Source: a virus (Duplodnaviria > Caudoviricetes). From it: a DNA stretch of 54,195 nt. Below the pieces are notes generated by a model that saw only the letters and a list, made by a program, of their open reading frames with translations, was not told the DNA's origin and made no database searches. The stretch spans positions 1 through 54,195 of IMG/VR virus record IMGVR_UViG_3300020201_000001. One strand, given 5' to 3'. Below, piece after piece: positions 12,181 to 35,818 of this stretch (position 1 is its first letter; the number at the start of each line of letters is the position of its first letter). Both the position numbers and the translations under genes were made by a program.

Positions 12181-13527
12181 ATGGGTAACATGAATGGCGA
12201 AATACCAGTTATAGGCACACGTCCTACTGCAAGCAGTGGTGGTGGTATAGATTTAGTTACTAATGGACAAATCAATTCATTGACGGATAAGTCTACTGTA
12301 GTTGATGCAGATGTAACTATCATTGAAGATAGTGCAGCTACGTTTGCTAAAAAGAAAGTTTTATTCAGTGTAATCAAAGAATGGATCCAGGATTGGTTAA
12401 GTACGTTTTTGGTGCAAGGTTCTGGGATGTCCCTTACCTATGATGATGCAGCGAATACTTTGACATTGGCAAGTATAGTAGATGCAACCAAAGAAAATGT
12501 ATCGAATAAAAGTACAACGACTACTTTAGGGGGTTCGGACACTTTATATCCGACACAAAATGCAGTTAAAACATACGTAGATAATTTAATAACTGGTTTA
12601 AAATGGAAACAAAGTGTTTTAGTTTCAACTACTGCTAATATCACATTGTCAGGCGAACAAACTATTGACGGTGTTACTACGAGTGCTTCGAGAGTTTTAG
12701 TAAAAAATCAATCGACAGGTTCAGAAAACGGAATTTATACTAGTGCCGCTGGTGCTTGGACACGTACCACAGATGCAGATGCTGGCACAGAGTTAGTTAA
12801 TGCAACTGTATTCATTGAGCAAGGAACTGTGTCAGCTGATACAGCTTGGGTGTGTACAAATAATAGTATAACAATTGGTTCAACTTCGTTAGTATTCGCT
12901 CAAATGTATGGTGCGGGTGCATATACAGCTCCAACAATTGGTTCGACTGTTATTAATAGCGGTACAACTGTAACGAATATTGTTGGTTTGACTTTAACTG
13001 GTCCTGTATTAGGTGTAGCAACGGCAACAAGTTTAAATGGTCTTACGATTACAACTACGTCTGGTACATTGACTATGGCGAATACAAAAACGTTAACGGT
13101 ATCTAATACTATAACATTTGCAGGTACAGATTCAACCACAATGACTTTCCCAAGTGCAAATGCAACAATAGTTGGCACAACCGCAACTCAAACTTTAACC
13201 AATAAACGTATAGACCCACGTTTGCAAAGTGTGGCAAGTAATGCAACGGTAACGCCTAATAGTGATACAGACGATGCGGTTATTATAACAGCACAAGCAG
13301 CGGGCTTAACCTTAGCCAATCCAAGTGGAACGCCCGTGCAAGGGCAACCTATGATTATCCGCATTAAAGATAATGCAACAGCACGTGCTATAACCTTTGG
13401 TTCACAATACAGAGGTATTGGAGCAGCTTTACCTACTACGACAACGATCAGTAAAACATTGTATATATCAATGATCTATAATAGCACCGATGTTAGATGG
13501 GACGTGATATTTAATCAGGAACCGTAA
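12181..13527 (+). CDS. Tail fibre protein
   Basis: Common fibre segments YPTQNAVKTYVD, ANITLSGEQTIDGV...RVLVKNQ...ENGIY...WTR and TQTLTNK; C-terminal GQPMIIRIKDN. Confidence 0.8.
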   Translation: MGNMNGEIPVIGTRPTASSGGGIDLVTNGQINSLTDKSTVVDADVTIIEDSAATFAKKKVLFSVIKEWIQDWLSTFLVQGSGMSLTYDDAANTLTLASIVDATKENVSNKSTTTTLGGSDTLYPTQNAVKTYVDNLITGLKWKQSVLVSTTANITLSGEQTIDGVTTSASRVLVKNQSTGSENGIYTSAAGAWTRTTDADAGTELVNATVFIEQGTVSADTAWVCTNNSITIGSTSLVFAQMYGAGAYTAPTIGSTVINSGTTVTNIVGLTLTGPVLGVATATSLNGLTITTTSGTLTMANTKTLTVSNTITFAGTDSTTMTFPSANATIVGTTATQTLTNKRIDPRLQSVASNATVTPNSDTDDAVIITAQAAGLTLANPSGTPVQGQPMIIRIKDNATARAITFGSQYRGIGAALPTTTTISKTLYISMIYNSTDVRWDVIFNQEP

Positions 13528-15079: not shown

Positions 15080-15952
15080 ATGAGTAACGCTATCAACTAC
15101 CACCCAACAATCATGCAAATGATTAAAGCTAAGCAACAACAAGCTATTGCTAAGCCAATTCCAGCGACAGTTGCACCACAGCCAGTTGCACCACCACCAT
15201 CACCAGCACCAGTTGTACAGCAAACAGCACCGCCAGCGACACAGAACGTACCTAACATACAAAACGATGCAACTCATAGTAGAGACTATATGGGTGCGTT
15301 ACTTGGCTTAGGACAGTCTGGAGCTTCTGCGTTCTTACAAGGTGGCAATGGTTGGCAGACTATAAGACGTAGGGAAAAAGAAGTTGACGAAGCATTGAGC
15401 AACAACGTACAAGATCGTGACCGTATTCTTAATGCTACTCCAGAAGCAACAAGAAGAGCTCAAGCAGCACAACTCAATCAAGGCAAGTCACAAGCAGTAC
15501 AAGCGGCAGCTAATGTAGGTGCAGGTATGAGTAGTTCGGCAGGTTTAAGTGGTGGTGATACTAACTCGGCAGTATTAAGTGCGGTTAAAGCTTCTGCACC
15601 AGTAATGCAAGCAAGTGCAGGTTATGATTCACAATTAAGCCAAAACTTTGCAGGTCGTGATCAAGCTGATGCTAACATTAACCAACAAGCAATGGGTAAT
15701 ACGATGATGCGAGGACAGTTAGCAGAAATGACTAACTATACAGACCGAGAAAACCAATCGAATAACCAATGGGCATCTTTCGCAGCTAACGCTACTAATT
15801 CAGCTCTTAATGGTGTGAATGCTTTAGACAACTTTAAAACTATGGGTGATCAAAAGAACACAGTAGCTAATACTTATATTGATCCAGCGGACGGCAAACT
15901 GTATTACACAAATCGTAATGGTCAAAAAACAGAATATAAAGGAAATAGTTAA
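15080..15952 (+). CDS. Putative ejected internal virion protein
   Basis: Pro-rich N-terminus; Q/A/N-rich helical body. Confidence 0.55.
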   Translation: MSNAINYHPTIMQMIKAKQQQAIAKPIPATVAPQPVAPPPSPAPVVQQTAPPATQNVPNIQNDATHSRDYMGALLGLGQSGASAFLQGGNGWQTIRRREKEVDEALSNNVQDRDRILNATPEATRRAQAAQLNQGKSQAVQAAANVGAGMSSSAGLSGGDTNSAVLSAVKASAPVMQASAGYDSQLSQNFAGRDQADANINQQAMGNTMMRGQLAEMTNYTDRENQSNNQWASFAANATNSALNGVNALDNFKTMGDQKNTVANTYIDPADGKLYYTNRNGQKTEYKGNS

Positions 15953-17445
15953 TGCCACAAATAAGCGAACAACATAGCACAGTCCAACGGAACGACGCTA
16001 TAGAAAATTCTTTGCAAATAGGTTTAGCCACATTAGGCAGTAACTTACTTGCTAAAAGACAGGAAAAGCAAAGACAAAATCAAGCAGCTAATTTAGCAGC
16101 TGATGTAATGCGTACGGATTGGAACCATATAGACAACGGTGCTTCTATGGAATTTAAAGATGGATTAATGAATGTCAGTCCAGACTTAGGTGATTACCAA
16201 GCTCAACTAATGAAAGATAAACTTGCTGGTAACCCAGATGATTTAAGCCAACGAGATTTAGTGACACCATTAACTAAAGTAGCTGGACAACCTGCAGTAC
16301 CAGACCTGTTACAAGAAGCAAAAGATTTCAGGACAGATGAAGCAGCTCAATCAGCTAACGTAGCAGGAGCAAACGCTTCGGTGGCAATAAATAACCTTAT
16401 GAGTGGTGGTACTATTGGGACAGCACAACCAACACCACCAGCAATTGTGCCACCAGTCGTACCCCCAGCGGTTACACCAGTTGTACCTGCTGCGGCAACA
16501 CCAGCAACACCAGCTAACTTTATACCCTTCCTACCACCAGCAACACCAGCAACACCAGCAACACCAGCACCAGTTACGCCCGTAGTACCACCAGTGGCAC
16601 CAGTAGCGGGAGCATTGCCAACGCCACGTTTCACTGGTAGTGCAAACAAAGTAGCTCAAGGTACTACAGAAAAAGAAACTCTTAGCACGACGAATCAATT
16701 ATCATCAGTCGCCTTAGAACGTAAAGATACAACACTGTATCAAATGGGTAAGCAAGAAGCCATCAGAGACGAACTTAAAACAAGTATTGGTGATTTACGT
16801 AGGCTTAGTGATTTTCGTTCCATTAGCAACGCTTTAACGGGTGCTACAGACAATCCTTATACTGCGTTGCAATCATACAGACAACAATTCATAGCATCAG
16901 TACAAGATAAGATTGGTATGCGAACTAAAATAGAAGCAATACCTACTGAACAAAAAGTTGCATTAGGTGAAGTTAAGTATAGTACAAAACAAGGCGTGGA
17001 TAGTCGTCAGAATACATCTATCTCTAATTCTACTTCATCACATGGTGGTGGTGGTGGTGCTCAACAAAAAGCAGTTGAAGCAGGGAAGATAAACGTAAAT
17101 GGGGTTGACTTTACTGCATACAGCAAAGAACCTGGATATAGCTATTTTACATCTGCAAATTTTGCAGTTAAACCGCTACAAGCTTTCTGGGATGATATGA
17201 AAAACAATCTTGTGACACTGGATGGCAAGGTAATCAACGACGACAAGGCTACTTTTGGCGGCAAACCAATAAAAATTATGTACAACGGTCACCCTTTCAT
17301 CTACAATGGAGGGACAAAACAAGTAGGGGTTATAAAAGATCACAAGTATGCAACTGGTGTGTTAGAGCTTCTATTAGGTTTGGGAGTGAGTGGAAGTAAT
17401 TCACAGACTGGAAACCCTTATCCGACAAAGACAGGTCCTAAATAA
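15952..17445 (+). CDS. Putative ejected internal virion protein with a Pro-Ala-Thr-Val linker
   Basis: Helical N-terminus, long PAT/PVV low-complexity linker, globular C-terminus. Confidence 0.55.
   Translation: MPQISEQHSTVQRNDAIENSLQIGLATLGSNLLAKRQEKQRQNQAANLAADVMRTDWNHIDNGASMEFKDGLMNVSPDLGDYQAQLMKDKLAGNPDDLSQRDLVTPLTKVAGQPAVPDLLQEAKDFRTDEAAQSANVAGANASVAINNLMSGGTIGTAQPTPPAIVPPVVPPAVTPVVPAAATPATPANFIPFLPPATPATPATPAPVTPVVPPVAPVAGALPTPRFTGSANKVAQGTTEKETLSTTNQLSSVALERKDTTLYQMGKQEAIRDELKTSIGDLRRLSDFRSISNALTGATDNPYTALQSYRQQFIASVQDKIGMRTKIEAIPTEQKVALGEVKYSTKQGVDSRQNTSISNSTSSHGGGGGAQQKAVEAGKINVNGVDFTAYSKEPGYSYFTSANFAVKPLQAFWDDMKNNLVTLDGKVINDDKATFGGKPIKIMYNGHPFIYNGGTKQVGVIKDHKYATGVLELLLGLGVSGSNSQTGNPYPTKTGPK
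16537..16569 (+). repeat. 9-bp coding tandem repeat CCAGCAACA (PAT repeats)
   Basis: Three full copies and one partial copy; further copies near 16495-16514. Confidence 0.85.
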
Positions 17446-17995: not shown

Positions 17996-20900
17996 ATGTC
18001 AAAGAATATTGTAGATCTAACACCTCCAATTAGTGGACGTGCCTTAGTTGAGACCATTCCTATTGTACCAACACGTAGAGAAATGTCCAATGCTAAAGAT
18101 GAAGCAATGCGGGAACAAGCGTTCTCAAAGAAATTGTTATTTGATGACAAAAGTGCAGAAGCAGTTGTTACAGGTAAAACAATGCTTAACCAACCTAACA
18201 TTAATAGGGATATACCTAAAACTGACAACACTCGCACTAAAGCTATTCCTCAACCTAAAAGCAAAACAAAGGATATACCAGGTGCAACGAAATTTGACTA
18301 TGTGGGGCAATCTAAAAAGGATGCAGAAGCCAAAGAAATGGATATAGGCTATGGTGATGATAAGTTAGACGAAGCACGCAAGATTGCTAACACACCTATG
18401 GCGAATCAAGAAAATGGTGAAATCTTTTATGACATACCAAAGATACAATCCGCACGTTTAGCTTTGCAAGGTAAAATAGACGAGCTTACTGCAAGCTCTG
18501 GTTTAACTGATAGTGGTAAAAGCCAGATGTTTACACAAGGTGCAAAAGACAATGGCATAATAGGTAAAGCAATGTTACCTTTCGTGCCTATTGCAGATAC
18601 GTTTGAGAACTTACAACAAAATTATTTACACCCAAAAAGAGAAGGTGCAGCACCATTAACACCAGACGATCCTAAGTACGCACAACGTAAAACAGAATAT
18701 CAATTAGAAGAATATTCTAAGATTATGAACAACTTAACGACACAGTATAATTATGCAAAAACGTTCCCTAATGGTAAAGTTGATTTCAGTCCACAAAGAC
18801 GAGTTGACGAGGGAGTTTCCAGTGCAGCGAAAAGTGTTGTTATGGGATATGTAGGAGACTTTGCAAATCATTTCACTGACGGTGGTGCTACTAAATTAAT
18901 GGAGAAAGTGTTTAGCACAGATGTAGCTACAGGACGTGCTTTGTTACAACAAGAATTAGAGAAAGCGAAAAGATTAGGTGGCAACAAACCAGACGAAATC
19001 ATACCAGAGTTAGGTATGACTTACAATCAGTTTGTCACAGGCTGGGAATCAGTACTTACCAATACTGGATTAGGCATAGTTAACTTAGTCAGCTCATTAG
19101 CACCAGGTGGTTCGTTTTCTACGGCAGGTGCAGTTGCTAATGATGTGATAAGCATAGCAAGTAAAGTAGTAAAGAGTGGAGCTAATGTAGTTAAAGAAAA
19201 GTTAGCACTAAGAACAGCTACTGCACTTGCAACAGATAAAGTTGTGTTTGACGGCATAGCTAAAGATATTGCTCTTAAAGCAGTGGATCCACAATGGGTG
19301 CAAAAGACAGAGCTATTTAGTCCAACGATTAAGAACATGATCGCCAAAGCACCAACAGATGCAGCAAGATTAGAAGTAGTAGAATTTGCCTTGAAAGACC
19401 AAACCTACAAAGTATTTAAACAAGTTTTTGCTGAAGCTAAGTTAGTAGGCAGAGCCTTGGAGCAAGCAAACATGTTAAAGTCAGCAGTTGGTCGAGTAAA
19501 CGGTCTTGGTTCATTGGATCAGCTTAGCAACATACTAGCCGATATTGTATCAGGCACTACAGCAACACAGTCTGAAGTGCTTGGCAAAATTGCCGTTGAC
19601 AGTATACGTATGTATTTAACAGGGTTGCTCAATACTGGCGACGCAGGAAGTGCAGAAAACTTAGCAACGTTAGGTGCGTACAGTAGTTTCTTTGGCACTA
19701 CAATGAAAAAATTAAGCATGACATACTTAGCGAAAAGTGATGCATTACGTCAAGCTATCGCACATGGTGATAGTAAATTAACCAATGACTTAATTGCTCA
19801 ATATCAAAAGACATCTCAATTATTTGCGATAATAGCGAATGACTTTGGTGGCGGTGGTGCACAGACAGTTGACGAGCTACGTAAGTTGGTAGGTAGTGAG
19901 GATATATGGAAAGAAATAGTTAAAACAGCGATGCCTAACTTCATTCTGGCACACGGTTCATTTACTTCGGCTAACAGATACATGAAAGAAAGAGGTCAAG
20001 ACGTACAGAACAAAAAGTGGGGGCTGGAGTTTAACAATGTGGTGGCAAAAGGAGCTCCAAATGTATCAGATGGTTTTGGGGGCACTGCCGCAAGTATAGC
20101 AGCCGGGAAAGATATAAGAGGCACAGTTGAAAGCACAGTTAACAAAGCATATCATGCTACTGCACCTGGCAAGCAAAAAGTAAGTATGGAAAAGTTTATT
20201 AAGGACAGTGCTAATCTATCAGGGATAAGTAAAAACACTGGCGAAATGAAAGTAGGTGAATTGCTTAACCTTTTAGAGAGATGGAAGAAAGAAGGTTTAC
20301 TGTCAAAAGATTTCAAAGTCTTTGACGAAGCTAACCATGTAAAAATTCTAAGTGGTATTCCAGCTGATACCAAAGTTGTATTCACCCAAGAAAACAAAAG
20401 CAATACTGAAAGCAAAGCTGAATACGATGCAACTACTAATACTATCAACTTCCATAACTTTGACTTTACAGGCACAGCACAGAACCCAATACGTCCAGAA
20501 GAAGTATTTAGCACAATAGCAGGCTTAATGAGTGAAGAGCTTACACACGCAGCTACAGTCCATAAAATTAAAGCTAACCCTGAAAAGATAGACGCTCTTA
20601 GACAAAAATATTTAGACAAGTTTAATGCTATGTACCCACCAGAAGTAGGACTTCCAGCAGATGCGGGTGCTATCCAATATGCATTAAGCAACAATGAAGA
20701 GTTTGTAGCTAATTTGTTTAATAACTTGCAAAGCCCACATTTCTTTAAATTTATTAAAGAAGCAGATAAAGCACAGAACGGTACAGTCAAAGCATTCTTA
20801 GATAACGTGTTGGATAAATTTGGCTTAGATGGTGCTGACCAAACGCTACGTAAAAACATATCTAAGATTATCTTAGACGTATTACCAGAAGACAGCAAAG

Positions 20901-23900
20901 AACTTTACACTAAACCACCACCAGCAACAAAGTTTACAGAAGAAGAAATTGGGGAGTACGCAAGTACATTAGAGCCACCAACGGTATATAGTGGCACTGA
21001 CTTAATAACAGTTGCTAATGAAACGGCAGCAAAATTTAATGAGCAAGGTAGTTCAGTCACTCCTGACGAGATATTACCTCAATCATTATTAGAAGCATTA
21101 CAAGTCCAACACAAGATTAAAGAAGACCAAGCTAACACAAGTGGCGTATACCCTGGTTTCTTCAAAGAAAGTAAGGATGGTACAGAAACATTAGCTTTCA
21201 ATGAAGAAGTAGAGAGATGGAACAGCATTCACCCAATCAAGATAACTAATGCACAAGCGTATCACATAGTCCAAAGTATCTTAGGCGAGCAAAAGTTTAC
21301 GCCTGAAATTGGTATACAAGTACTGAAAGAAATGTTGAACGAAAGCAGAACAGAACAAGCAAGCACAGTAAGACAATTGATCGAGGAAGTAGAATCCGAA
21401 GCAATACAAGCAGAAAGAGACTTTATAGAAGGTAAAGGTAAAGATGACAAAAGTGACTTGCGTGCTTATAAAGTATTAGGTTACGAAAAGGCGTCCGAAC
21501 TGTACGCAGAGCATTCAGCTGGTGCTAACCCAACAAAAACTCCAGCACAGGTGACTGCAGATGCATACAAAGCAATTATGGAAGGCATGAACAAGCAACT
21601 GAAAGAGCAGTATGGAGACAAAGAGATACCTACAAAAGAATTAGAAAAAGCAGAGATAATAGCAAAGAAAGAAAGTATCAAGTTATCAAATTCAGGCATG
21701 GTTACAGCATTAGATGGAGAACGTATTCCATTCTCTTTGATGAAAGGTTACCATAGAGCTTTAGATGGTGTCAGAAAACAGATAGGCGGAGGTTTAACTT
21801 ACGACAACAAACGTATCTTAGATGCCGTCCTTGATATATTCGCAGGGCTAAAACCAATAAACAAATATAACGTTGGTGATGGAATACAAACGGGTCGGTA
21901 TTATAGACCAGCTGGTGTAACCGATATGGCAATTGTATTGGACGAAAAAACTCCCGCACAGATACGAGTTATGACCCAAAAACTACATCAAGTTATAATC
22001 AATCATGCAGTAACGTCCGAAGCATTCTATCGTGGTTCTAAACATGACCCAGCTAAGGTAGCTAAAGCCGCACGGGAGTTAATGCCATTTGTTAATTATA
22101 AAGCAGTAGCAGAAGGCAAATCAAACTTTAATGACTTGTTCGTAGCAAAGTTAACTTCTAAACATTATGGCAAAGAATATGGTGATACGGATGCAAGATT
22201 AAAGAAACTGCAGACAGAACATAGTGATGTCTTACAAGAAGTAATAGATAATTTAAGTAGCCTATACGACAACAAAGGGTATAATCCTCATGAAGGCAAA
22301 GATGGACCTTTAACGCCCGATGAAGCTACGGCATTCCAAAATGGTCTTCATGGTATAATGAACTTGACACTTAATCCAGGTGGCAATGATATGATTGCCA
22401 AAAGAATTACAATAGATGAGAATGGTGTTATATTCAGAGACCCTGGTAAAATATCAGCTAAGTATATTAAGTTAGTCATAGACAATAACACGTTTAGGAT
22501 GACTGACGTTGCGAACATAGGTTTATATAATCCATTGTTAATCAAAGATGGTAAAGTTGATGCAGAATATTTAGCAGCAGAGTACCCAGACTTAGCTTTA
22601 TTGCCAGATGGTAACTTAGCGTTTAAATTAATCAACACAGAACAATTCTTGCCTTACTTAAGCCCTGAATTAAAAGATTGGTTGTCAAGTGTTGCAGGCA
22701 AAGACACACAACGTATTGATGGTGGTATTATCGCAATAGGAGAAATGCCAGGTGTAAAATTATTAGCTACAGCAGTAGGAGGAGGAAAAAACAGTGCTTT
22801 CTTTAAAGGAAAAGGTACAGGATTATTTAAAAACGCTATACACAACGTGGCACCGTCCGAAGTTGTCCACCCTGATACGCCTGGGTATAACAGTATTAAA
22901 AGTTTTGCTGAAAAAATAACCAAAGCTGGGATCCAAATTCATGATGGTACTTCATTGAAGAATACTGCAGAACTGTACGAATATCACAGGATGCCATTGC
23001 CTAACATGGAGGGCAATTTAACAGCGTTACTGGACAATAGTGGTACGATTGTATCAATTTTGGATAATAAAGGCTCTAACGTGACGGCAGATGCCAAAGA
23101 GAAGGTTTTGAAAGCATTGGCATACGAGTTAGAAACTACTGGTAAGTTACCAGATCAAATGATAACCAAACAACCGATTACAGGGGAACACGCTTTAACT
23201 CTCATGACAGCTGATAAAGAAGGTAAACATAATGCAGGTGGTGTTGTACATCCTGGCATTATTAATTTAGTGCCTACTGGTCGATTAGGATTTGACGTAA
23301 AACCAGACGTAATCGCAAAATACACACAAGCTATTAGTGATTTAACTGAAAATAATTTCAAGCATTTCTCTAAGCAACTTGATGGTGTAGCATCTATTGA
23401 AAGAATGTTAGTAGAGCTATCACAAGGTGAACACATCACTGGCACGAAAGCTGAATTAGGTGCATTACAGAATACTGTTGAAGGTTTAGAAGCTATGCTT
23501 AACGAAAATCCTGATATTCTATATCGTGGAGTACCAGGTACCAAGTTACTTGCAGAAATAGATGGCTTGTTTAAGACAGATGATTTAGGTAAAAGATTAG
23601 TGCTTGATAAAGACCAAGTAGAAAGTTTCTTGATAGATCGTTTCAAATTGTTCACTGGAAAATCTACAGACATAAGCAGTCCTTCATCGAAGAAAGAAAA
23701 TTGGGTTACTACAGATTCAATATTGTTTGATTTAGCGAAACGCTCTTATGATAGCATACAAAAACTTCATGCAGTTAACGGTAGCAATTCAATGTCGGTT
23801 TCACCTAATTTTGGAGATAGTAGATTTGCTATCGAAAGATTAGTAGGCAAAGGTGGTATGGCTGACGAATTAACCAAAATGTTTATTGATCCAAAGAATG

Positions 23901-26900
23901 GCAATATTATCAATATGGGTATAGCTTTGCCTTTGAAGTTTATTAAAGATAATAACCTTCAACCAGGTCAAAGCATACTTGTTTCAAGAATACCAGCACA
24001 TGACACAGGGAGTACCACTGTAATGACTTTAATAGGTGCAACTGATTCTCACTCTACTATCCATGCTGATTCTGAATACCTAACGGGCAGTGCGGGTATG
24101 GATTTCGATAAAGACAGTTTGCAAATCTTACTTCCAGATCCCCACATATTAACTAAGGATATTTACAAAGCTATGATTGACTACATAGGCGACGTTACCA
24201 AAGATACAAGTAAGTTATATCCTGACATTATGAAAATAGATAGCACTGGTGAGCTTGATAGAATATATAAAGAACTGGGATTGTCTCACTTGTTAAAAGA
24301 CGTTTCACATAGCCCACTTAGTAGAGATGCTTATAACAAAGGAGATAATGGCACAGCTTTAGCAGGTGCAGCGGTGAGTTTGAAAAAATCAATTGCATTA
24401 ATAGCAGCCGCTTATGCAGCTACTGGTGAAGTAAAAGGTGATTATAGATACGTAACAGCGAAACGGGGAGACATAAAGTTAGTGCTTAAATTCCCACTGA
24501 AACCAGATATGATGACGGCTATTGCTAATGCGGCAGCACAATTAGGGTACGACAATTTCGCAGGTCATCACATAAAAGAAGAAGCTAACATTTTAATGCC
24601 ATATTTACACTCAATTACGTTTGGAGAAGGCAAGACACATACAGGCAAAGATTTAGGCGATGAAATGGTTATGAGGAAAATTGGCTCAACTGTACGTGAA
24701 TTAGCACACAATGTTAAGATGGAAAATGCACAAGGTGTAGATGAACCCACCCATCAATTTGGTACACAAGGGAATAATGCGGCACGTGCTTTAGTCGAGC
24801 ATAATATGATTCAGTATGGCAAAAGGTTAAAGCAGTTAGACGAGACATTAAAGTTTTTGAATATGGACAGGCAAATCCAAACTATAATAAACTCAAACAG
24901 TATAGCAATAGGTAAAAAATTACAGCTATTTAACCTTATGTGGCATAAAAATGCAGATTCACCTGAATTACTGGGAACGTTAAACTATCTAAGAGATGCT
25001 ATTAGCACACAGTTCAATAGCTTGGGAAGAAAAGGAGAATGGAAGACGGGTGGTGTGACAAAGTCTGTCTCTTCATTACTGTATTATAATGACGCATTTA
25101 AACATCTTCCAGCAGCGATGATGGTATCGGGAGCACGACAGTTAGCAAATGGCACAGAGATTAGATTTGGTGAAAACATTGCCATTATTACAAGTGCAAA
25201 AGAAGTCAAACTGAATGGTGAAACTGTACCATTTGAACAATTCTTAGTAAAGTATGGGAAAGAAGGAACACGTAAAGATGCAGAAGCATTGCACATACTA
25301 TATTATGACCAAAACATAAATGGTAAAGGCAAAGGTGGGATAACATATAACCGTATGCAAACAACCATAGATGGATTAATTGCAGTAGTGGGACGTAAAG
25401 TAAAGAACATAGACGATTACGCCAATTTAGGCGATTTAAGAGTAGGAGACGACCCAAATGATGTAACACTTAATACAATCAAAGAAATCGCCACCAGGGT
25501 CTTCTTTGGTAGCGATACCCCTCTTATAGATAATAAACAGAACTTTAGTTTACACAATGAAAACGGTTCTGGAGCTGAAGCGTCCCGACGTGCTTTAGAA
25601 CGGGCAGGTATCGTACCTAAAGTTCATGGCGTTTCTGTTGCGGATATGGCACGTGATGAATTCAAAAAGACGTTAGCTACCAAAGAGCAACCAAATGATG
25701 TACATGGTGCTTTCGCATTTGGTAGAGCTTCAGATCAAGGTTCCAATATTTTCGATAACCCAAAGACAACTTACGATGAATTACGTAAAGCATTAGTTAA
25801 CCATCCAGAGATAGCTAATAAACCTGTCACTAAATGGACGGCAGAAGATTTTAGAATAGCTAAACCTATCATAATGGCTCATGCAGCAAACAAAGTACGT
25901 GCTTTAAAAGGTACTATTATGCCAAGTTTATGGAAACAATTCTTTGCATTGGCAAGTCCTAAAGGTAGTGAGATTGGCAAACCATGGGATAGTGATCCTG
26001 AACATAAACATACCCAACATGTTATTGATGAAATAGGTGAATTATTAGATTACGATTATTTGCGGAATATTGAATCACAGGAAACTTTAAAGAATGGCAA
26101 AGCATTAGCTCAATTGCAAACTTTACAGATGTTACCGCATGCAGTGCAAAAGCTTAACGATATGATGAAAGCTCAAGGCTATAACGAAGTTAATAATTAC
26201 ACAGGTACACTAGACCTTAATAGCCAATTAACATACTCAAGCTACAACCAAACTTTTTCTGACCTTGACCAAGACATAGGCTTCACGAAAACGTACGGAC
26301 CAAATGGCTTTACGGAATCCAGGGTACGTGCATTCTCGATGAATTTAAATAGACGTTTAGGAATAAACCTTGACAAAGTACATACAACAGTGCAATACAA
26401 ACAGTTTCTACATGACGCTAAAAATATGTCGTTGATCAAAGATCAAATCAATATGTTCTTAGGTAACTACAACAATGCAGACAAAGGATATGACGTTAAC
26501 CAAACTTTACCAGTATTGTCAAAAATACTCAAATCACCAACGCTTAAGGCTATGTTCGATGCCGTTATCACACCTGACTATTCAGTTAGCACAACGAATA
26601 TATTAGCACAAGGTAAATTAGGGGGTGTTCATATTGACTATAATTTACCTGACGCAGTGCAAGCTAGAAAAGAAAACGTATTAAAGGGTTTGTCGAAGGA
26701 GATATTCAATGCCTTCAAGAAACAGCAAGTTAACCTTGTAGATGGCTTTGATATGGAAGAGACACAAGCAGCAATGAACTTAGGTGAGATAACGCTTGCT
26801 GACATTAAAGACGCATTGTCTATGTACACAGACCAAGTATTGCTTAATAATACATTGAGTGTTGGTCTGGACGTAATTAGTGACAGCATAACTAACCTTA

Positions 26901-29900
26901 TAAATAAAAACAGTCAGTACGCAGATGTAGCTTCGTATACCGTCATACAAGAACAATTAAAAGCTACTATAGAAAGTTTGCGTAATCCATCGGATATGGC
27001 TAAATGGCACACCACACAAGCAGTTAGCACTGACATGTTAAACAACACTCAAACATTGATTGCAGAGATAGGTGCATCAAGCTCGGCTGAAATTTACGAA
27101 GCACTTGTTAAGACAGGCAAAATACCATTCAAACCAGATCACGAATTCGAAGACGAAATGGGTGCCAAAGATGACGCACTCAAAGGTTTGCAACAATTTC
27201 TATCAGGTAGCAAAACTAACTTCAAAGTAAACAAAAGATTTAATGATGGCTTAGTGCCAGATAAAGAGCGAATGGAGTTCTCTAAAGAAGATGTAAAGAA
27301 TTTGATGGAAGCATTGCCACTTGACCGAATAAAAACAGTATCAACAGAAACACAAAGCATGATGGACGCAGAAACAGAGATGGACGCTTTAAGGGCAGAA
27401 GAAGAAGCACGTTATGCAGAATCTATGGGGATTGCAGTTGAGGCGAAAACACCACAACCAACAGAAGCACTCAAACCAGCAAGGACATACATAGATACAA
27501 CAGCAGAAGTGATGTACGATGCTAAGTCATACAAAGAAAATCTGATTAACCATTTACAAAAAACATTGCTTAATGTGAACACTGTATCTAAGAACATTTT
27601 CAATGATAACTATAATGAATCTGAATTTGCACGTGCTATTACCAATACGTTATTTAGTGAATATGCTGGGAAGGAATTCACTGATGACTACGTAATCAAA
27701 AGCACTAAGACTCCAGATGGTTTAACAAGGATGTTCGACGATCCTGACAAAGAAATACCAAAAGGACAATACGTAGAATTCCTGCATGCGGACAACAATG
27801 GTATCGACAGTCAACATGCACGTTATCTTGGTATTGTCAAACGTAATGTAGCTATCAAAGATATTGAAGGTAATGTAACCAACGTACCTAAAAATTTAAT
27901 TGTTTTACTTGTTGACAATGGTAGCCGTGCTAGTATAAGTCTTGTTGAGGAGAAAGATATTAAGACGATGACTGCACAAATGAAAGTCAGCAGATCTGGA
28001 CAAAAGCAAGAGAAAGTTATCAAAGAATTCTTTGATAAAAACAGCAACCAATTGATGGAAGATATTAGAACTTACGTGGACACAGCCGCATGGGAGGAAG
28101 GATCAAAGGGCAGGTACAAAGAAGTAAACTTAGGTCACTCGGCACAACCAACTACTTTGTTCTCACAAGGAACACCTTTGATTAATATGTCACGTACTTC
28201 TAAAGATGCTGAAAAAACTTTACTAACTACTTTGAATAAATACTCAACCACCATAGCTTATTCCTTATTTGGGCGAGGCACACAGACTGCAACGGTAGGC
28301 TTAGCTTTAATTGGAGTGAGTGCATTGACTTCACTAACTCCAGCGTTAGGCATAGGAATGATTGCGGCAGGTGCAGCACAAATAGGTAAAAGAGGGTTTA
28401 AACTATTCGTTGATGGGCAAGTAGGAAGTACAGGAGCAGCGATACAGCATGACGTATTCGCAAAAGATTTTATTACCCAAGCAACTAATATGTTCAATCA
28501 CTTATGGTCACCTAAAACACTTAATGAAACGACTGCAATACGAGCAGTAACCCAAGTAGCTATCGCAGCCGCAATAGAAGAAGCAGGTGTAGAAAAAGAC
28601 ATAAGCAAAGTAGATTCGTTTTATCTTGCACAACAAGCACGTGAAGAAATCAAAGCATACAACCGCATAGAGAATTTTATCGGTGATGGTTTAGGATCGA
28701 AAGTTAACGACGAAGGAATAGCTAAACTAAAAGAAGAATACGCTTTGAAAGGAATGGACGTAAATTTCACTAAGATAGGTAAAGATGGTTATGCTTTAAA
28801 AATCAATGATCATAGCTATCAAGACATGCAAAAAGCTAACAAAACATATTTAGACTTAATGTTGAATGCATTACACGCAACTGGTTTCCAAGCTAAGTTA
28901 GAAGCAACCAGTACTGAAAAAGCAATGGCAATAGCGACGCAAGTTAATAGAGCACGACAAACAAAGTTTAAAGAGATATTTGGAACAGATGTATCTTATT
29001 CTGAAGCAGAAGTATTAAACTACATTGATTACTCAACCAAAACAGCATTAGGTTCATTTGTTAAGTCAGCTAAGCAAGCGACACCATTTGGACGTTTCAT
29101 CACCCAATTCCAACGTTACCAAAGAGAAGCGGCAGTAGATCAGTATAACTTGTTTAAATACCGTAACGAGCTTTATACAGCTGTAGAAGATGACATTTTG
29201 TATTGGAGTGCGAAAGCAGGGGCAGGAGATAGGAAATCACAACAACTCCTGGACATATTAGAACAAGTAGGTTTGGTATCCGCAACTGACATGACTGGTT
29301 CAATGAGTAAGCTAAAGAACAGAGCTTATGCATTAAATACAGCCGCTGGTTTATTATCAGGTGGTGGTAAATATTTAGGTGTAATGGCATTAAACCAATT
29401 TAACCAAATACTCAATGGTGATGATGACGACGAAGAAAAAGGGACAGGTCAGTTAATTGGAAGTGCGATAGGCAAAGAATGGCTAACAGAGAGAGACCAA
29501 GATATGCGACCATATTCTGGTATCTATCAAGGTGGTGCAACTGGTTTGACAATGGCAACTGTACTCGCAGGTGTGTATGGAATGTTCAAGACTGCCGTTG
29601 ATGTAAAGACTGATGAGGACATAGATTTACGTAGACATACTAAAAACCTTAAATTAGTAGAAGGTCTTACAGCACCACTTAAGTACGGATTAGGCATGAC
29701 AGCTATCACAGCACTGAATACTAGTCTTGTTGCTTTTTATGCAAGCATACTAAACCACGTAGATAAAGGTAAAGGATTTACTGAAAAAGAGAGAACTAAT
29801 CCAAATTATTATCTTAACTTTGTAATGAACAAAATAGCACAAGCATCACAAATGTTCCCGTTCGCAGCTTTAGCCACAACTTATGTGAATGAACAACTTA

Positions 29901-30025
29901 AAGTCAATAAGACAATAAAAAACAATGATAGTTTTTTCAAGAAAGCAACAACAGGCAACCCACTGCCGATGAATGAAAAGGAAGGTAGTGAAGGTAGTGA
30001 AGGAGAAATCGAGGTAATTCGATAA
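17996..30025 (+). CDS. Giant 4009-aa virion protein; putative single-chain two-barrel (DPBB) RNA polymerase with a zincin-like domain
   Basis: VSRIP (R1998) followed by GMDFDKD (D2036-D2040, nt 24101-24115). Upstream IDGG (D1575), FKNA and TSLK motifs. EELTH (847-851) plus EEFVA (901). Confidence 0.75.
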   Translation: MSKNIVDLTPPISGRALVETIPIVPTRREMSNAKDEAMREQAFSKKLLFDDKSAEAVVTGKTMLNQPNINRDIPKTDNTRTKAIPQPKSKTKDIPGATKFDYVGQSKKDAEAKEMDIGYGDDKLDEARKIANTPMANQENGEIFYDIPKIQSARLALQGKIDELTASSGLTDSGKSQMFTQGAKDNGIIGKAMLPFVPIADTFENLQQNYLHPKREGAAPLTPDDPKYAQRKTEYQLEEYSKIMNNLTTQYNYAKTFPNGKVDFSPQRRVDEGVSSAAKSVVMGYVGDFANHFTDGGATKLMEKVFSTDVATGRALLQQELEKAKRLGGNKPDEIIPELGMTYNQFVTGWESVLTNTGLGIVNLVSSLAPGGSFSTAGAVANDVISIASKVVKSGANVVKEKLALRTATALATDKVVFDGIAKDIALKAVDPQWVQKTELFSPTIKNMIAKAPTDAARLEVVEFALKDQTYKVFKQVFAEAKLVGRALEQANMLKSAVGRVNGLGSLDQLSNILADIVSGTTATQSEVLGKIAVDSIRMYLTGLLNTGDAGSAENLATLGAYSSFFGTTMKKLSMTYLAKSDALRQAIAHGDSKLTNDLIAQYQKTSQLFAIIANDFGGGGAQTVDELRKLVGSEDIWKEIVKTAMPNFILAHGSFTSANRYMKERGQDVQNKKWGLEFNNVVAKGAPNVSDGFGGTAASIAAGKDIRGTVESTVNKAYHATAPGKQKVSMEKFIKDSANLSGISKNTGEMKVGELLNLLERWKKEGLLSKDFKVFDEANHVKILSGIPADTKVVFTQENKSNTESKAEYDATTNTINFHNFDFTGTAQNPIRPEEVFSTIAGLMSEELTHAATVHKIKANPEKIDALRQKYLDKFNAMYPPEVGLPADAGAIQYALSNNEEFVANLFNNLQSPHFFKFIKEADKAQNGTVKAFLDNVLDKFGLDGADQTLRKNISKIILDVLPEDSKELYTKPPPATKFTEEEIGEYASTLEPPTVYSGTDLITVANETAAKFNEQGSSVTPDEILPQSLLEALQVQHKIKEDQANTSGVYPGFFKESKDGTETLAFNEEVERWNSIHPIKITNAQAYHIVQSILGEQKFTPEIGIQVLKEMLNESRTEQASTVRQLIEEVESEAIQAERDFIEGKGKDDKSDLRAYKVLGYEKASELYAEHSAGANPTKTPAQVTADAYKAIMEGMNKQLKEQYGDKEIPTKELEKAEIIAKKESIKLSNSGMVTALDGERIPFSLMKGYHRALDGVRKQIGGGLTYDNKRILDAVLDIFAGLKPINKYNVGDGIQTGRYYRPAGVTDMAIVLDEKTPAQIRVMTQKLHQVIINHAVTSEAFYRGSKHDPAKVAKAARELMPFVNYKAVAEGKSNFNDLFVAKLTSKHYGKEYGDTDARLKKLQTEHSDVLQEVIDNLSSLYDNKGYNPHEGKDGPLTPDEATAFQNGLHGIMNLTLNPGGNDMIAKRITIDENGVIFRDPGKISAKYIKLVIDNNTFRMTDVANIGLYNPLLIKDGKVDAEYLAAEYPDLALLPDGNLAFKLINTEQFLPYLSPELKDWLSSVAGKDTQRIDGGIIAIGEMPGVKLLATAVGGGKNSAFFKGKGTGLFKNAIHNVAPSEVVHPDTPGYNSIKSFAEKITKAGIQIHDGTSLKNTAELYEYHRMPLPNMEGNLTALLDNSGTIVSILDNKGSNVTADAKEKVLKALAYELETTGKLPDQMITKQPITGEHALTLMTADKEGKHNAGGVVHPGIINLVPTGRLGFDVKPDVIAKYTQAISDLTENNFKHFSKQLDGVASIERMLVELSQGEHITGTKAELGALQNTVEGLEAMLNENPDILYRGVPGTKLLAEIDGLFKTDDLGKRLVLDKDQVESFLIDRFKLFTGKSTDISSPSSKKENWVTTDSILFDLAKRSYDSIQKLHAVNGSNSMSVSPNFGDSRFAIERLVGKGGMADELTKMFIDPKNGNIINMGIALPLKFIKDNNLQPGQSILVSRIPAHDTGSTTVMTLIGATDSHSTIHADSEYLTGSAGMDFDKDSLQILLPDPHILTKDIYKAMIDYIGDVTKDTSKLYPDIMKIDSTGELDRIYKELGLSHLLKDVSHSPLSRDAYNKGDNGTALAGAAVSLKKSIALIAAAYAATGEVKGDYRYVTAKRGDIKLVLKFPLKPDMMTAIANAAAQLGYDNFAGHHIKEEANILMPYLHSITFGEGKTHTGKDLGDEMVMRKIGSTVRELAHNVKMENAQGVDEPTHQFGTQGNNAARALVEHNMIQYGKRLKQLDETLKFLNMDRQIQTIINSNSIAIGKKLQLFNLMWHKNADSPELLGTLNYLRDAISTQFNSLGRKGEWKTGGVTKSVSSLLYYNDAFKHLPAAMMVSGARQLANGTEIRFGENIAIITSAKEVKLNGETVPFEQFLVKYGKEGTRKDAEALHILYYDQNINGKGKGGITYNRMQTTIDGLIAVVGRKVKNIDDYANLGDLRVGDDPNDVTLNTIKEIATRVFFGSDTPLIDNKQNFSLHNENGSGAEASRRALERAGIVPKVHGVSVADMARDEFKKTLATKEQPNDVHGAFAFGRASDQGSNIFDNPKTTYDELRKALVNHPEIANKPVTKWTAEDFRIAKPIIMAHAANKVRALKGTIMPSLWKQFFALASPKGSEIGKPWDSDPEHKHTQHVIDEIGELLDYDYLRNIESQETLKNGKALAQLQTLQMLPHAVQKLNDMMKAQGYNEVNNYTGTLDLNSQLTYSSYNQTFSDLDQDIGFTKTYGPNGFTESRVRAFSMNLNRRLGINLDKVHTTVQYKQFLHDAKNMSLIKDQINMFLGNYNNADKGYDVNQTLPVLSKILKSPTLKAMFDAVITPDYSVSTTNILAQGKLGGVHIDYNLPDAVQARKENVLKGLSKEIFNAFKKQQVNLVDGFDMEETQAAMNLGEITLADIKDALSMYTDQVLLNNTLSVGLDVISDSITNLINKNSQYADVASYTVIQEQLKATIESLRNPSDMAKWHTTQAVSTDMLNNTQTLIAEIGASSSAEIYEALVKTGKIPFKPDHEFEDEMGAKDDALKGLQQFLSGSKTNFKVNKRFNDGLVPDKERMEFSKEDVKNLMEALPLDRIKTVSTETQSMMDAETEMDALRAEEEARYAESMGIAVEAKTPQPTEALKPARTYIDTTAEVMYDAKSYKENLINHLQKTLLNVNTVSKNIFNDNYNESEFARAITNTLFSEYAGKEFTDDYVIKSTKTPDGLTRMFDDPDKEIPKGQYVEFLHADNNGIDSQHARYLGIVKRNVAIKDIEGNVTNVPKNLIVLLVDNGSRASISLVEEKDIKTMTAQMKVSRSGQKQEKVIKEFFDKNSNQLMEDIRTYVDTAAWEEGSKGRYKEVNLGHSAQPTTLFSQGTPLINMSRTSKDAEKTLLTTLNKYSTTIAYSLFGRGTQTATVGLALIGVSALTSLTPALGIGMIAAGAAQIGKRGFKLFVDGQVGSTGAAIQHDVFAKDFITQATNMFNHLWSPKTLNETTAIRAVTQVAIAAAIEEAGVEKDISKVDSFYLAQQAREEIKAYNRIENFIGDGLGSKVNDEGIAKLKEEYALKGMDVNFTKIGKDGYALKINDHSYQDMQKANKTYLDLMLNALHATGFQAKLEATSTEKAMAIATQVNRARQTKFKEIFGTDVSYSEAEVLNYIDYSTKTALGSFVKSAKQATPFGRFITQFQRYQREAAVDQYNLFKYRNELYTAVEDDILYWSAKAGAGDRKSQQLLDILEQVGLVSATDMTGSMSKLKNRAYALNTAAGLLSGGGKYLGVMALNQFNQILNGDDDDEEKGTGQLIGSAIGKEWLTERDQDMRPYSGIYQGGATGLTMATVLAGVYGMFKTAVDVKTDEDIDLRRHTKNLKLVEGLTAPLKYGLGMTAITALNTSLVAFYASILNHVDKGKGFTEKERTNPNYYLNFVMNKIAQASQMFPFAALATTYVNEQLKVNKTIKNNDSFFKKATTGNPLPMNEKEGSEGSEGEIEVIR

Positions 30026-33372: not shown

Positions 33373-33491
33373 ATAACAGTTTCTAAATATTTTATGTAAT
33401 CATACACGTCTTGTGTAGCCCTGCAATCTATACCACCACATTTATCAATAGGATAAACTGGTGGTATGATTTTAATGTCATTTATCTGCAT
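33351..33491 (-). CDS. 46-aa hypothetical protein (MQINDIKIIPPVYP...), not in the ORF track
   Basis: Translated by hand; overlaps the upstream gene end and fills the gap to the terminator. Confidence 0.45.
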   Translation of the reverse strand: MQINDIKIIPPVYPIDKCGGIDCRATQDVYDYIKYLETVIRELMPT

Positions 33492-33762
33492 ATCGTGACG
33501 TTAGCCAAAACTTCAAGGTCTTACGACCAAAGTATTCTATTAGTGCGTCAAATCCACCAGCATGAAAAAGCAATCCATCATCATAACTCTGCCAAGTCCA
33601 ACTTAATTTCTGGCATAGTATATCTTCATCAGGTGAGTAAATTAACACCCATTTCGATTGCATCTCATCCGTCCAGTCTACTTCCCAATTCGCACGTGCG
33701 TTTATTGAGCGTATCATAGCTCTAACTTCTTCATCCAATGCTTTCCATATCAAGTTACTCAT
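33478..33762 (-). CDS. FKFWLT-family paralog 1 (core module only)
   Basis: NWEVDWTDEMQSKW and LKFWLT motifs. Confidence 0.85.
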   Translation of the reverse strand: MSNLIWKALDEEVRAMIRSINARANWEVDWTDEMQSKWVLIYSPDEDILCQKLSWTWQSYDDGLLFHAGGFDALIEYFGRKTLKFWLTSRYADK

Positions 33763-34196
33763 AGTGTTCCCTCTTTAGTCAGCCAAAATTTGAACTCCTC
33801 TTGAGTGTAAAGTGTGCGTAGTATCTGTATTGTGTCGTAAGAGAAATACAAACTGTTGTCTTGTGATTGAAACCAGCTGGATACAATAACATCAAGGCAA
33901 CCAGCCCTTCTATTCCAAACTAAATAACATTTCCCTTGCTCATTATCATGCCAGTCTACCACCCAATTATCTTCTTTGCGAAGGATTGCAATTGAACGTA
34001 GGATTTTTGTATTTAATAAACGCCATTTATATTCCAAATCTGCTTCTTGTTTTGTTGCATAGTAATTGCCAGAATTGAAGCGAGCTATATCAGAATCATA
34101 ATTATTCCAAATACTTCTCCGCACCACATCAAGTATAGTCCAATACTTTGTGCCATCTTCAGGATATACTAATTCTTCGTCTGTTAATTTACTCAT
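33759..34196 (-). CDS. FKFWLT-family paralog 2
   Basis: VYP...RFNSGNYYAT, NWVVDW and EEFKFWLTKE motifs. Confidence 0.88.
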   Translation of the reverse strand: MSKLTDEELVYPEDGTKYWTILDVVRRSIWNNYDSDIARFNSGNYYATKQEADLEYKWRLLNTKILRSIAILRKEDNWVVDWHDNEQGKCYLVWNRRAGCLDVIVSSWFQSQDNSLYFSYDTIQILRTLYTQEEFKFWLTKEGTL

Positions 34197-34483
34197 AGTT
34201 CTCTCTTCCTAGTTATCCAAAATCTCAAGTTTGCATGACCAACGTATCCTCTTAGTTTTTCAAATCCACCTTCATAAAAATACAATGCATCATCATGATT
34301 TTGACTGGACCAACTCAATTGCTGAATTAGTTTACTCTCATCATGTGAGTAACATACGTTGCATTTTGTTTGCGTTCCATCTGTCCAGTCTATTTTCCAA
34401 TTCGCATTTCTGTTTAGTATACGTATATTTTCCCGTATTTCTTTATCCAATTCTTCCCATGTCCAATCCCAAATACTTATCAT
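34193..34483 (-). CDS. FKFWLT-family paralog 3 (core module only)
   Basis: NWKIDWTDGTQTK and LRFWIT motifs; closest to paralog 1. Confidence 0.85.
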   Translation of the reverse strand: MISIWDWTWEELDKEIRENIRILNRNANWKIDWTDGTQTKCNVCYSHDESKLIQQLSWSSQNHDDALYFYEGGFEKLRGYVGHANLRFWITRKREL

Positions 34484-34719
34484 TACGCTTCCTCATAATC
34501 ATGTAAGAAACTACATAACACTTCATGTATCTCAAGTTGAGCTGCATAAGCATCTTTCTCATTACTGAATACATAAGCTTCTCCTAAACATTCTTTCAAT
34601 GCAAACAATAACTGACTTTCATCTTCTACTGTAATTATTGCATAATCTCGTGTTATCACATATAACACACCTACTTGTTCTAACTTGACAAGCCATTGGT
34701 TAAATTTACTTAAACTCAT
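34483..34719 (-). CDS. Acidic hypothetical protein
   Basis: AGGA RBS; coupled to the downstream gene. Confidence 0.65.
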   Translation of the reverse strand: MSLSKFNQWLVKLEQVGVLYVITRDYAIITVEDESQLLFALKECLGEAYVFSNEKDAYAAQLEIHEVLCSFLHDYEEA

Positions 34720-34738
34720 TTCATTATCCTATTATTAT

Positions 34739-34768
34739 AAAAAAAGGTAAGCTACTTGCCTACCTTTT
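34739..34768 (-). terminator. Intrinsic terminator
   Basis: Minus strand AGGTAGGC-aagta-GCTTACCT followed by a T-run. Confidence 0.75.
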
Positions 34769-34776
34769 ATTCACTC

Positions 34777-35073
34777 TTAACTAATCAAGCTCAACCATTC
34801 AGGTGCTTCACTTAAACTAATTGCATCAACTATCTCTCCAGTCGCCTGTATCGTATGTTTCTTCACTGTCACTAATCTACCTGCAAATGTCTTTCCATCA
34901 TACTTAGATAGAAAGTTATATGCAGTCTGTCTGTTTGGATCTATCTCTAACTGTCTTTGAGATAAACTGATTGAACATTCTGTATTGATCTTATTCATAT
35001 ACAATGCTCCAGTTGATAACATACTGTCATATACAACTGTTTCTTCTGCCAATGTTAAATTACTCTTAGCCAT
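34777..35073 (-). CDS. Early hypothetical protein, paralog of 35819-36121
   Basis: Shares the S-G-L-x-x-N-K-x-N, AYxFL, TFAG and HT motifs and a terminal PxW; purine-rich RBS before ATG 35073. Confidence 0.8.
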   Translation of the reverse strand: MAKSNLTLAEETVVYDSMLSTGALYMNKINTECSISLSQRQLEIDPNRQTAYNFLSKYDGKTFAGRLVTVKKHTIQATGEIVDAISLSEAPEWLSLIS

Positions 35074-35120
35074 AACTCTTCCCTTAAATAAATACTTGCT
35101 ATCATACATCTTATGATAAT

Positions 35121-35170
35121 CAAATAAAAGAAAAGATCCCAGACACTACCACAAAAGCAAAGAGCGAAGC
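35121..35170 (-). promoter_or_regulatory. Leftward promoter-like element, inverted copy of 36716-36767
   Basis: Minus strand GCTTCGCTCTTTG-N12-TGTCTGGGATCTTTTCTTTTATTTG. Confidence 0.6.
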
Positions 35171-35244
35171 AGACCCACGTATACCTATTTGCCCCATTAA
35201 AGCCCCTCCCTTGCATTATTAACCCTAACCTATACATTTGTATC

Positions 35245-35495
35245 AAATATATACTTTATTCTGTCTCACGCTTGTTATATCACTACACTATACTCTCTAT
35301 ACACATACATACATATATTAATTATATATATATCATATACTTATATACTTATATAGTTATACTTATATATATATATATTATTATTATTATATATACTTAC
35401 TTATATACTTACTTACTTACTTATTCATATACTTATTAACATATATAAATATAATTAGTATATATAGATAATAATGATTATTAAAGAATATCAAA
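35245..35495. repeat. Very AT-rich low-complexity tract with TACTTA/TATA iterations; candidate DNA-unwinding element
   Basis: Non-coding, almost no G on the plus strand, repeated tatactta/tact units. Confidence 0.7.
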
Positions 35496-35519
35496 GTGCG
35501 TGCGTGCGTGCGTGCGTGC
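35496..35519. repeat. (GTGC)6 microsatellite
   Basis: Six perfect copies. Confidence 0.95.
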
Positions 35520-35557
35520 AATAATATTTAATACAAGATTCGGTGTTTATATCCATG

Positions 35558-35577
35558 TTATGCACAAGTTATCAACA
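35558..35577 (+). promoter_or_regulatory. Two tandem DnaA-box-like 9-mers
   Basis: TTATGCACA (fits TTWTNCACA) and TTATCAACA (one mismatch), 11 bp apart, next to the AT-rich tract. Confidence 0.45.
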
Positions 35578-35603
35578 CAACTAACCATCTAACCAAACAA
35601 TAC

Positions 35604-35632: not shown

Positions 35633-35634
35633 AG

Positions 35635-35813: not shown

Positions 35814-35818
35814 AATAA

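Follow-up and report, generated by a model that had tools for sequence, protein, structure and literature searches.

A giant open reading frame with an RNA polymerase-like motif

The window analysed here is the whole 54,195-nt genome of an uncultured phage (IMG/VR record IMGVR_UViG_3300020201_000001; Duplodnaviria; Caudoviricetes), which has 37% G+C and a 127-nt direct terminal repeat (DTR) at its ends and is classed by IMG/VR as DTR and 100% complete. Nearly all of its genes lie on the plus strand. One of them, an open reading frame (ORF) at 17996..30025, takes up 12,030 of the 54,195 nt (22%, as originally estimated) and encodes P0001, a protein of 4009 amino acids (aa) that is probably a new, very divergent virus-carried RNA polymerase (RNAP). 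An earlier annotation of this ORF (the original prediction) had proposed a virion protein with the active site of a two-barrel RNAP. The ORF, every motif that it named and the 38-residue spacing were verified in the translation: ILVSRIP at residues 1994-2000 (R1998), GMDFDKD at 2034-2040 (D2036, D2038 and D2040), with 38 residues from R1998 to D2036, and the upstream motifs IDGG (1574-1577), FKNA (1611-1614) and TSLK (1652-1655).

DxDxD occurs three times in P0001 (DFDKD at 2036, DLDQD at 2756 and DEDID at 3873), and the bare motif is expected 1.1 times per shuffled P0001 sequence. The longer pattern, R.P followed after 33 to 39 residues by D.D.D, arose in 34 of 5000 shuffles. Taken in P0001 alone, the RxP...DxDxD arrangement is weak evidence and only suggestive; it gains its weight because it is conserved in all five members of the family described below, not because it occurs in a single sequence.

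A family of giant phage proteins sharing the motif

An exhaustive phmmer search of 1.84 billion representatives with residues 1401-2400 as the query returned a sole relative, P0002 (4250 aa, E 3e-37), which is colinear with P0001 over its full length at approximately 25-30% identity. P0005 (4480 aa) was found by synteny on a 35-kb viral contig (G001), where it lies directly upstream of a terminase 40% identical to that of the present genome; the gene order that this contig shares with the present genome also takes in the capsid protein (45%), several genes of the tail region and a protein of approximately 1300-1400 aa. The BLASTP match between P0005 and P0001 was confined to one C-terminal block (aa 3404-3757, E 5e-12); in hhalign, 539 columns of the P0001/P0002 core profile aligned with the centre of P0005 (Prob 86%, E 5.6e-6). 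The three-member core alignment, used for a pattern scan, revealed a further two giant frames, L013 (3737 aa) and L014 (4914 aa), which matched the core profile with hhalign Prob 99.1 (E 1e-18) and 99.8 (E 1e-27), respectively; one of the two lies on a complete 56.9-kb DTR genome. The family thus found has five members, all of them giant proteins on uncultured viral contigs.

Other searches recovered nothing beyond the query, namely a word-indexed search of proteins of near length (1 of 1948 candidates), a search with the P0005 core (1 of 1567), pattern scans of viral contigs for which either P0001 or P0002 alone was the query, and a core profile search of longer proteins (1 of 7998), the length window of which (1419-4050) left out the known 4250- and 4480-aa relatives. 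No relatives of P0001 were found by tblastn among 50,697 phage records. Terminase-profile scans of viral, metagenome and genome contigs gave nothing new, the metagenome yielding only a 6.1-kb fragment of the same phage. The 6109-nt contigs concerned (L003 and L008), present in both the viral-contig and the metagenome collections, encode a terminase 100% identical to that of this genome, and the phage has therefore been assembled at least one more time, as a fragment. A limited search of the literature found no description of the family, and no RNA polymerase was among the matches listed for DxDKD-type motifs. P0001 thus belongs to a rare, conserved family of giant proteins, a small family in uncultured phages outside Crassvirales with genomes of approximately 54-57 kb.

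The catalytic-type motif was conserved across this family. R-x-P, then exactly 38 residues, then D-x-D-K-D was present in all five members, as DFDKD in P0001 (R1998), DNDKD in P0002 (R2272), DYDKD in P0005 (R2272) and DFDKD in both L013 and L014. The one variable position is the second, which is F, N or Y, and the Lys at the fourth position, which the original prediction had pointed out, is present in every member. DxDKD is the sole DxDxD in P0002, in P0005 and in the L014 piece; in the L013 piece it is joined by DIDID at 1170. A lack of conservation of DFDKD in homologues, which would have spoken against the original prediction, was not seen: none of the five members departs from the three Asp or the Lys. 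Overall, 28 of the 751 core columns were invariant in the five-member alignment, among them R1998, P2000, G2014, G2034, D2036, D2038, K2039, D2040 and D2048. The upstream motifs, predicted to be those of a first barrel, fared less evenly: only D1575 and G1576 of IDGG and only K1612 of FKNA were invariant, and TSLK was not conserved. From this alignment, the invariant K1604, K1612 and K1744 could belong to a second active-site element.

That the five lineages are 20-33% identical overall and yet share R, P, G, D, D, K and D without exception argues for selection on the site itself. It thereby counts against a catalytically dead relic, in which P0001 would be a purely structural giant (an internal core, ejectosome or length-determining protein) with the barrel kept for folding or metal binding. 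This explanation draws on the Lys at position 4 and the variable position 2, both of which depart from DFDGD, and on the HExxH motif in the N-terminal third, already degenerate in two of the three full-length members, which implies that domains of this protein can decay. We consider it very unlikely.

Predicted fold of the central domain

We modelled residues 1901-2110 from a three-sequence alignment. The mean predicted local distance difference test score (pLDDT) of this small model was 57.3, rising to 66-77 in its core (model residues 61-170, that is, aa 1961-2070). Its elements run in the order strand 75-79, helix 80-85, strand 93-99 (which carries R-I-P), strand 107-116, helix 126-133, loop 134-140 (exactly GMDFDKD), strand 141-145 and helix 154-169. 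Two features of the two-barrel RNAP superfamily are a beta'-like catalytic double-psi beta-barrel (DPBB) and a conserved DxDxD triad that immediately precedes the final strand of the barrel, in a loop, with R-x-P approximately 35-39 residues upstream. The model predicts such a barrel and such a loop, and the spacing here is 38. Downstream of the barrel, where the superfamily has a bridge helix and a trigger loop, the model holds just helix 154-169 and ends at aa 2110.

Fold searches with the small model pointed in the same direction. Foldseek ranked the phage P32 gp64 RNAP first among PDB entries (E 4.6e-4) and placed the non-virion RNAPs of PhiKZ and AR9, as well as p97-N domains, close to it, and the structural matches also included Rpb1, the archaeal A' subunit, Pol IV NRPD1 and bacterial beta'. 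Among predicted viral structures (BFVD), matches included giant-virus RNAP subunits, a 616-aa uncharacterized P23-45 protein (A7XX94) and several crAss-like proteins, with a protein of Cellulophaga phage phi14:2 only at rank 44 (E 0.016). The phi14:2 virion RNAP gp66 (6VR4) and QDE-1 (2J7N) were absent among the PDB fold matches listed, which is no evidence against relatedness. The original prediction that RxP...DxDxD lies in a catalytic DPBB is thus borne out at the level of a predicted barrel, the best structural matches of which are RNA polymerase active-site barrels, and the central domain is, to judge from this model, quite likely to be an RNAP-type catalytic DPBB.

Barrels of this kind also occur in other classes of protein, and P0001 could instead be a giant ejection or structural protein that contains a cell-wall or lytic DPBB (RlpA-, MltA- or expansin-like) or a p97-N-like adaptor, its acidic loop having no polymerase function. 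The fold searches speak against this, since the best 11 and the best 50 matches were all RNA polymerases (aligned lengths 106-116 versus 81-97), as does the R-x-P-38-DxDxD arrangement, invariant in five of five members and matched to RIP...DFDID of gp66 in the best BLASTP and hhalign matches. The genome moreover has a separate GH108 endolysin. A barrel of another class is accordingly rated as unlikely.

Comparison with crAss-like virion RNA polymerases

A sequence link to known virion RNAPs was sought with gp66 of Cellulophaga phage phi14:2 (2180 aa, DFDID at 1361; PDB 6VR4; locus tag Phi14:2_gp077, KC821624 45265-51807), which we compared together with four crAss-like orthologues. As reported in 10.1101/2020.03.07.982082, gp66 is packaged in the virion and transcribes early genes, and mutating any of the Asp residues abolishes its activity. 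When all 4009 residues of P0001 were compared with all 2180 of gp66, the best BLASTP segment joined R1998-2078 to gp66 R1322-1404, with RIP...DFDxD on both sides (E 0.015), so that the best local match of the entire protein to gp66 falls on the catalytic site of gp66. Profile comparisons converged on the same site: hhalign of the three-member profile against the crAss profile aligned 72-73 columns there (score 46.4, E 2e-4, Prob 47%), and the five-member profile against the five-member crAss profile aligned 72 columns (score 50.5, E 7.5e-5, Prob 62%), compared with 18-19 in reversed controls (19.1 for the five-member profile). With the full-length profile the best match was again the catalytic site (39.6 versus 26.8 reversed), and the two-sequence core against gp66 alone gave 44 columns at Prob 3%.

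Both P0001 and gp66 are very large proteins encoded among late or structural genes, and in both R-I-P is followed after 38-39 residues (39 in gp66) by G-x-D-F-D-x-D and then (M/L)LP, with a fourth residue other than Gly. The similarity is, however, limited to approximately 72 columns at the catalytic site (Prob 47-62%), and every one of the five family members has Lys as its fourth residue, where 10.1101/2020.03.07.982082 gives Ile or Val for crAss-like phages without exception. Among the crAss sequences that we aligned, four of five had DFD(I/V)D and one had DLDVD. The genomes also differ, at 54 kb with a DTR here as against approximately 100 kb, and in the present phage the capsid protein matches SU10_MCP and the portal matches P22_portal. 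Among the 50,697 phage records searched, its portal had no match and the best matches of its terminase included none of the listed crAss-like phages. Because of the Lys at position 4, the lack of detectable homology beyond the catalytic loop and the non-crAss genome, we keep this family apart from the crAss RNAPs. In the uncultured phage cr55_1 (Suoliviridae; MT774376.1, L009), the gp66 orthologue is annotated as one coding sequence of 13,656 nt (~4550 aa), and polymerase fusions of the size of P0001 therefore already exist in Crassvirales.

Several results weigh against a two-barrel RNAP. The hhalign probabilities to crAss sequences did not exceed 62%, and the HMMER profile of the family (A5), which recovered three of three family records as a positive control, matched none of the five crAss genomes. 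Searched against Pfam at E values up to 1, P0001 gave only a chance match to IcmW (E 0.18); it had no match in PHROGs, and sequence searches of the PDB gave nothing relevant, whether the query was P0001 itself or profile A1 or A5. The Pfam models of the RNA-dependent RNA polymerase (RdRP, PF05183) and of Rpb1 (PF00623) were silent in both P0001 and the genome. The upstream half, where a first barrel would lie, scored 14.9 and 20.4 against the crAss first-barrel region by hhalign, compared with 14.8 and 18.6 when reversed, and a larger model of 751 aa (aa 1430-2180, two sequences) had a mean pLDDT of 31.6 and was discarded as unusable. Where the original prediction had placed double-psi barrels around aa 1570-2045, the catalytic one was predicted at aa ~1961-2070 and the upstream one received no comparable signal. 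Finally, a Lys at the fourth motif position is, to our knowledge, unprecedented in an active RNAP, the residue being Gly in cellular RNAPs.

Flanking regions of P0001

The C-terminal part of approximately 1900 aa, described as uncharacterised in the original prediction, does have features of its own: the conserved block shared with P0002 and P0005, as well as hydrophobic segments at aa 3431-3461 (inside that block) and 3901-3919 in the hydropathy profile. The block and these segments suggest an envelope-related role, which would resemble that of the ejectosome of the N4 virion RNA polymerase (vRNAP). In the N-terminal third, the HELGH of P0005 is aligned with EELTH in P0001, and Glu replaces the first His of HExxH in both P0001 and P0002, which makes the P0001 site non-canonical as a zincin. 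An N-terminal zincin protease in P0001 was therefore rejected, HExxH being found only in P0005, and the (H/E)-E-L-x-H region may represent a decayed zincin-like domain. P0001 contains no cysteine in its 4009 residues, nor do the L013 and L014 pieces (2078 and 2112 aa); P0002 has one cysteine and P0005 six.

Genomic setting of P0001

The P0001 gene lies in the late or structural block, past the capsid and tail-like genes and directly before the large terminase (Table 1). PHROGs and Pfam identified no ejection protein among its neighbours, so that the ejected-protein cluster of the original prediction was not recovered, and they detected no second RNAP gene in the 42 further ORFs of the genome; most of these other ORFs had no family match in either database.

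Table 1. Positions of P0001, of features within it and of recognisable genes in the window.
Feature	Position (nt)	Strand	Basis or remark
Giant ORF P0001	17996..30025	+	ATG start; 4009 aa
E-E-L-T-H, aa 847-851, N-terminal third	20534..20548	+	Aligned with HELGH of P0005 (aa 1087; L007)
Conserved upstream region, aa 1449-1770, candidate first (beta-like) barrel	22340..23305	+	Best-conserved stretch between P0001 and P0002; invariant D1575, G1576, K1604, K1612, K1744
Predicted catalytic double-psi beta-barrel, aa ~1961-2070, beta'-like "DPBB-A"	23876..24205	+	
R1998-I-P2000 (R-x-P), on predicted barrel strand	23987..23995	+	R and P invariant in 5/5; aligns with gp66 R1322-I-P
D2036-F-D2038-K2039-D2040, candidate Mg-binding triad	24101..24115	+	Aligns with gp66 DFDID 1361-1365
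Conserved C-terminal block, aa 3404-3757	28205..29266	+	BLASTP to P0005 fragment (E 5e-12); also aligned with P0002
SU10-like major capsid protein	21-1433		Pfam SU10_MCP
GH108 endolysin	4386-4943		PHROGs/Pfam scan
Tail-fibre or decoration-like protein	12181-13527		PHROGs/Pfam scan
Large terminase, synteny anchor, downstream neighbour of P0001	30728..32602	+	PHROG 38, E 3.6e-57
DnaB-like helicase	46552-47940		PHROGs/Pfam scan
Exonuclease	49467-50378		PHROGs/Pfam scan
P22-like portal	50680-52998		Pfam P22_portal

Proposed role of P0001 and relation to other systems

Taking these results together, we favour, with some reservation, the reading of P0001 as an active, virion-delivered two-barrel RNAP, and the family is a probable group of single-chain two-barrel RNAPs outside Crassvirales with Lys at position 4. 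Delivery in the virion, like the rest of this reading, is suggested by the analogy to gp66 and to gp96 of Thermus phage P23-45, by the position of the gene in the structural block, by the lack of any other recognisable RNAP gene and by the lack of cysteine; for packaging, the size of the protein also counts. The centre of P0001 would be a two-barrel (cellular-type) RNA polymerase contained in one chain, in which the G-M-D2036-F-D2038-K-D2040 loop would hold the catalytic Mg ions and R1998-x-P would sit on one strand, with the region approximately 290-460 residues upstream, which contains the invariant Lys 1604, 1612 and 1744, forming a beta-like barrel that faces the triad. The protein would be packed in the capsid and expelled with the DNA into the host, as with gp66, gp96 of P23-45 and also N4 vRNAP, which has another fold, and would there transcribe the first phage genes without host RNAP; the conserved C-terminal block with its hydrophobic segments may aid passage through the cell envelope. 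The upstream second barrel, the polymerase activity, packaging and ejection, and the transcription of early genes are all steps that we infer from these comparisons.

Among known systems, the family is best described as a probable new family of phage virion single-chain two-barrel RNAPs, which would work most like those of crAss-like phages and P23-45. In P23-45, the RNAP is reported to form the N-terminal part of gp96, fused to a siphovirus tape measure of 5002 aa (10.1101/2022.12.01.518664). The predicted barrel of P0001 instead lies midway along the chain (aa ~2000 of 4009), the phage has an SU10-like capsid protein and a P22-like portal, and no sequence similarity of P0001 was detected to gp96 (PDB 8H2M/8H2N) or to the non-virion RNAPs gp64 and gp62 (8F72, 8F5M), with which the Thermus phage comparison was made. 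The catalytic DPBB with its DxDxD loop is also a likeness to QDE-1/RDR enzymes and to the beta' subunit of cellular RNAP, from which the family differs in having Lys rather than Gly as the fourth residue and in the failure of either Pfam model to match.

The closest functional analogy is to the vRNAP of N4-like phages (Schitoviridae), a protein of approximately 3500 aa with a central catalytic domain and long N- and C-terminal flanks. N4 vRNAP is a T7-like single-subunit (right-hand) polymerase and not a two-barrel enzyme, and it differs in this fold from the DPBB predicted in P0001. A T7-like polymerase domain in P0001 was rejected, there being no Pfam or PHROG match of that kind and the modelled central domain being a DPBB instead. 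N4-like vRNAP is described as a capsid-packaged component of the DNA ejectosome, with which it is expelled (PMC13434306, PMC11445570).

A two-barrel nucleotidyl transferase need not be a DNA-dependent transcriptase. P0001 could be an RdRP of the QDE-1/RDR kind, or a PolD-like DNA polymerase or primase acting at the start of replication: RdRPs and archaeal PolD are described as also using the two-barrel fold (PMC7281927, PMC9508822), the nearest named ESM Atlas clusters were RdRP PF05183 for both queries (scores 0.83 and 0.82, weak leads only), and no DNA polymerase was recognised by PHROGs and Pfam in the 42 other ORFs scanned, which leaves the genome with no gene assigned to a polymerase function. 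However, the closest giant phage precedents with the same gene position, gp66 and gp96, are DNA-dependent RNAPs according to 10.1101/2020.03.07.982082 and 10.1101/2022.12.01.518664, as are the best structural matches of the small model, and a location in the structural block suits a virion protein better than a replicase. We give a non-transcriptase little credence relative to the RNAP reading.

More speculatively, the family might represent a third, independently fused form of "bring your own transcription", in which a two-barrel RNAP and an ejectosome share a chain of 3,700-4,900 residues and the Lys of DxDKD acts as a built-in switch, a proposal that we regard as doubtful. Such a protein would combine N4-like logic with a crAss-like fold while being homologous to neither beyond the catalytic loop, and its invariant Lys could neutralise or occupy the metal site during storage in the capsid, to be displaced upon ejection. 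If this were true, the family would provide a natural test case for how a charged residue can be tolerated, or put to use, in the universal DFDGD site.

Phage two-barrel RNAPs have a central place in thinking about where the RNAi polymerases came from and about the extent to which the core of cellular RNAP can be reduced or rebuilt, and those borne in virions have so far come from Crassvirales and P23-45-like Thermus phages. A further divergent family, comprising five uncultured contigs and invisible to Pfam, PHROGs and PDB sequence searches, would widen this picture by its charged Lys in the metal-binding motif, its embedding in approximately 4000 residues and its small podophage-like genome, and would give structural biologists and biochemists a compact new enzyme to work on. 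As a method, a short motif conserved across giant orphans, together with fold prediction of a small domain, can assign "dark" genes, in this case one that makes up a fifth of the genome.

Other features of the genome

The portal of the phage had no tblastn match in the collection of 50,697 phage records, and the best matches to its terminase there, from Campylobacter, Helicobacter and Pseudomonas phages, were only 21-23% identical, none of the listed crAss-like phages being among them. A second large orphan (5712-10013, 1433 aa) has no family match and is 25% identical to a 1274-aa protein at the same position in contig G001, which makes it a candidate tail or ejection component.

On the plus strand at 36737-43838 are approximately eight paralogous small genes (135-211 aa), the conserved 3' ends of which reach into the ribosome-binding site and ATG of the next gene, and one inverted copy of this family lies on the minus strand at 33759-34196 (together repeat families D1-D7 and I1-I6). 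They had no PHROG or Pfam match, and those at 36737-43838 could be an expanded early-gene family. Two adjacent smaller paralogues (44297-44518 and 44528-44767; 73 and 79 aa; repeat families D17 and D20) have CxxC-type cysteine pairs in common. Just upstream of the P0001 gene, a 497-aa orphan ORF (15952-17445) contains a Pro/Thr/Ala-rich repeat with a 9-nt period at 16420-16602. An AT-rich simple repeat with overlapping palindromes (35330-35450), situated between the sole minus-strand block (~33478-36175) and the plus-strand block, is a candidate origin or divergent early-promoter region.

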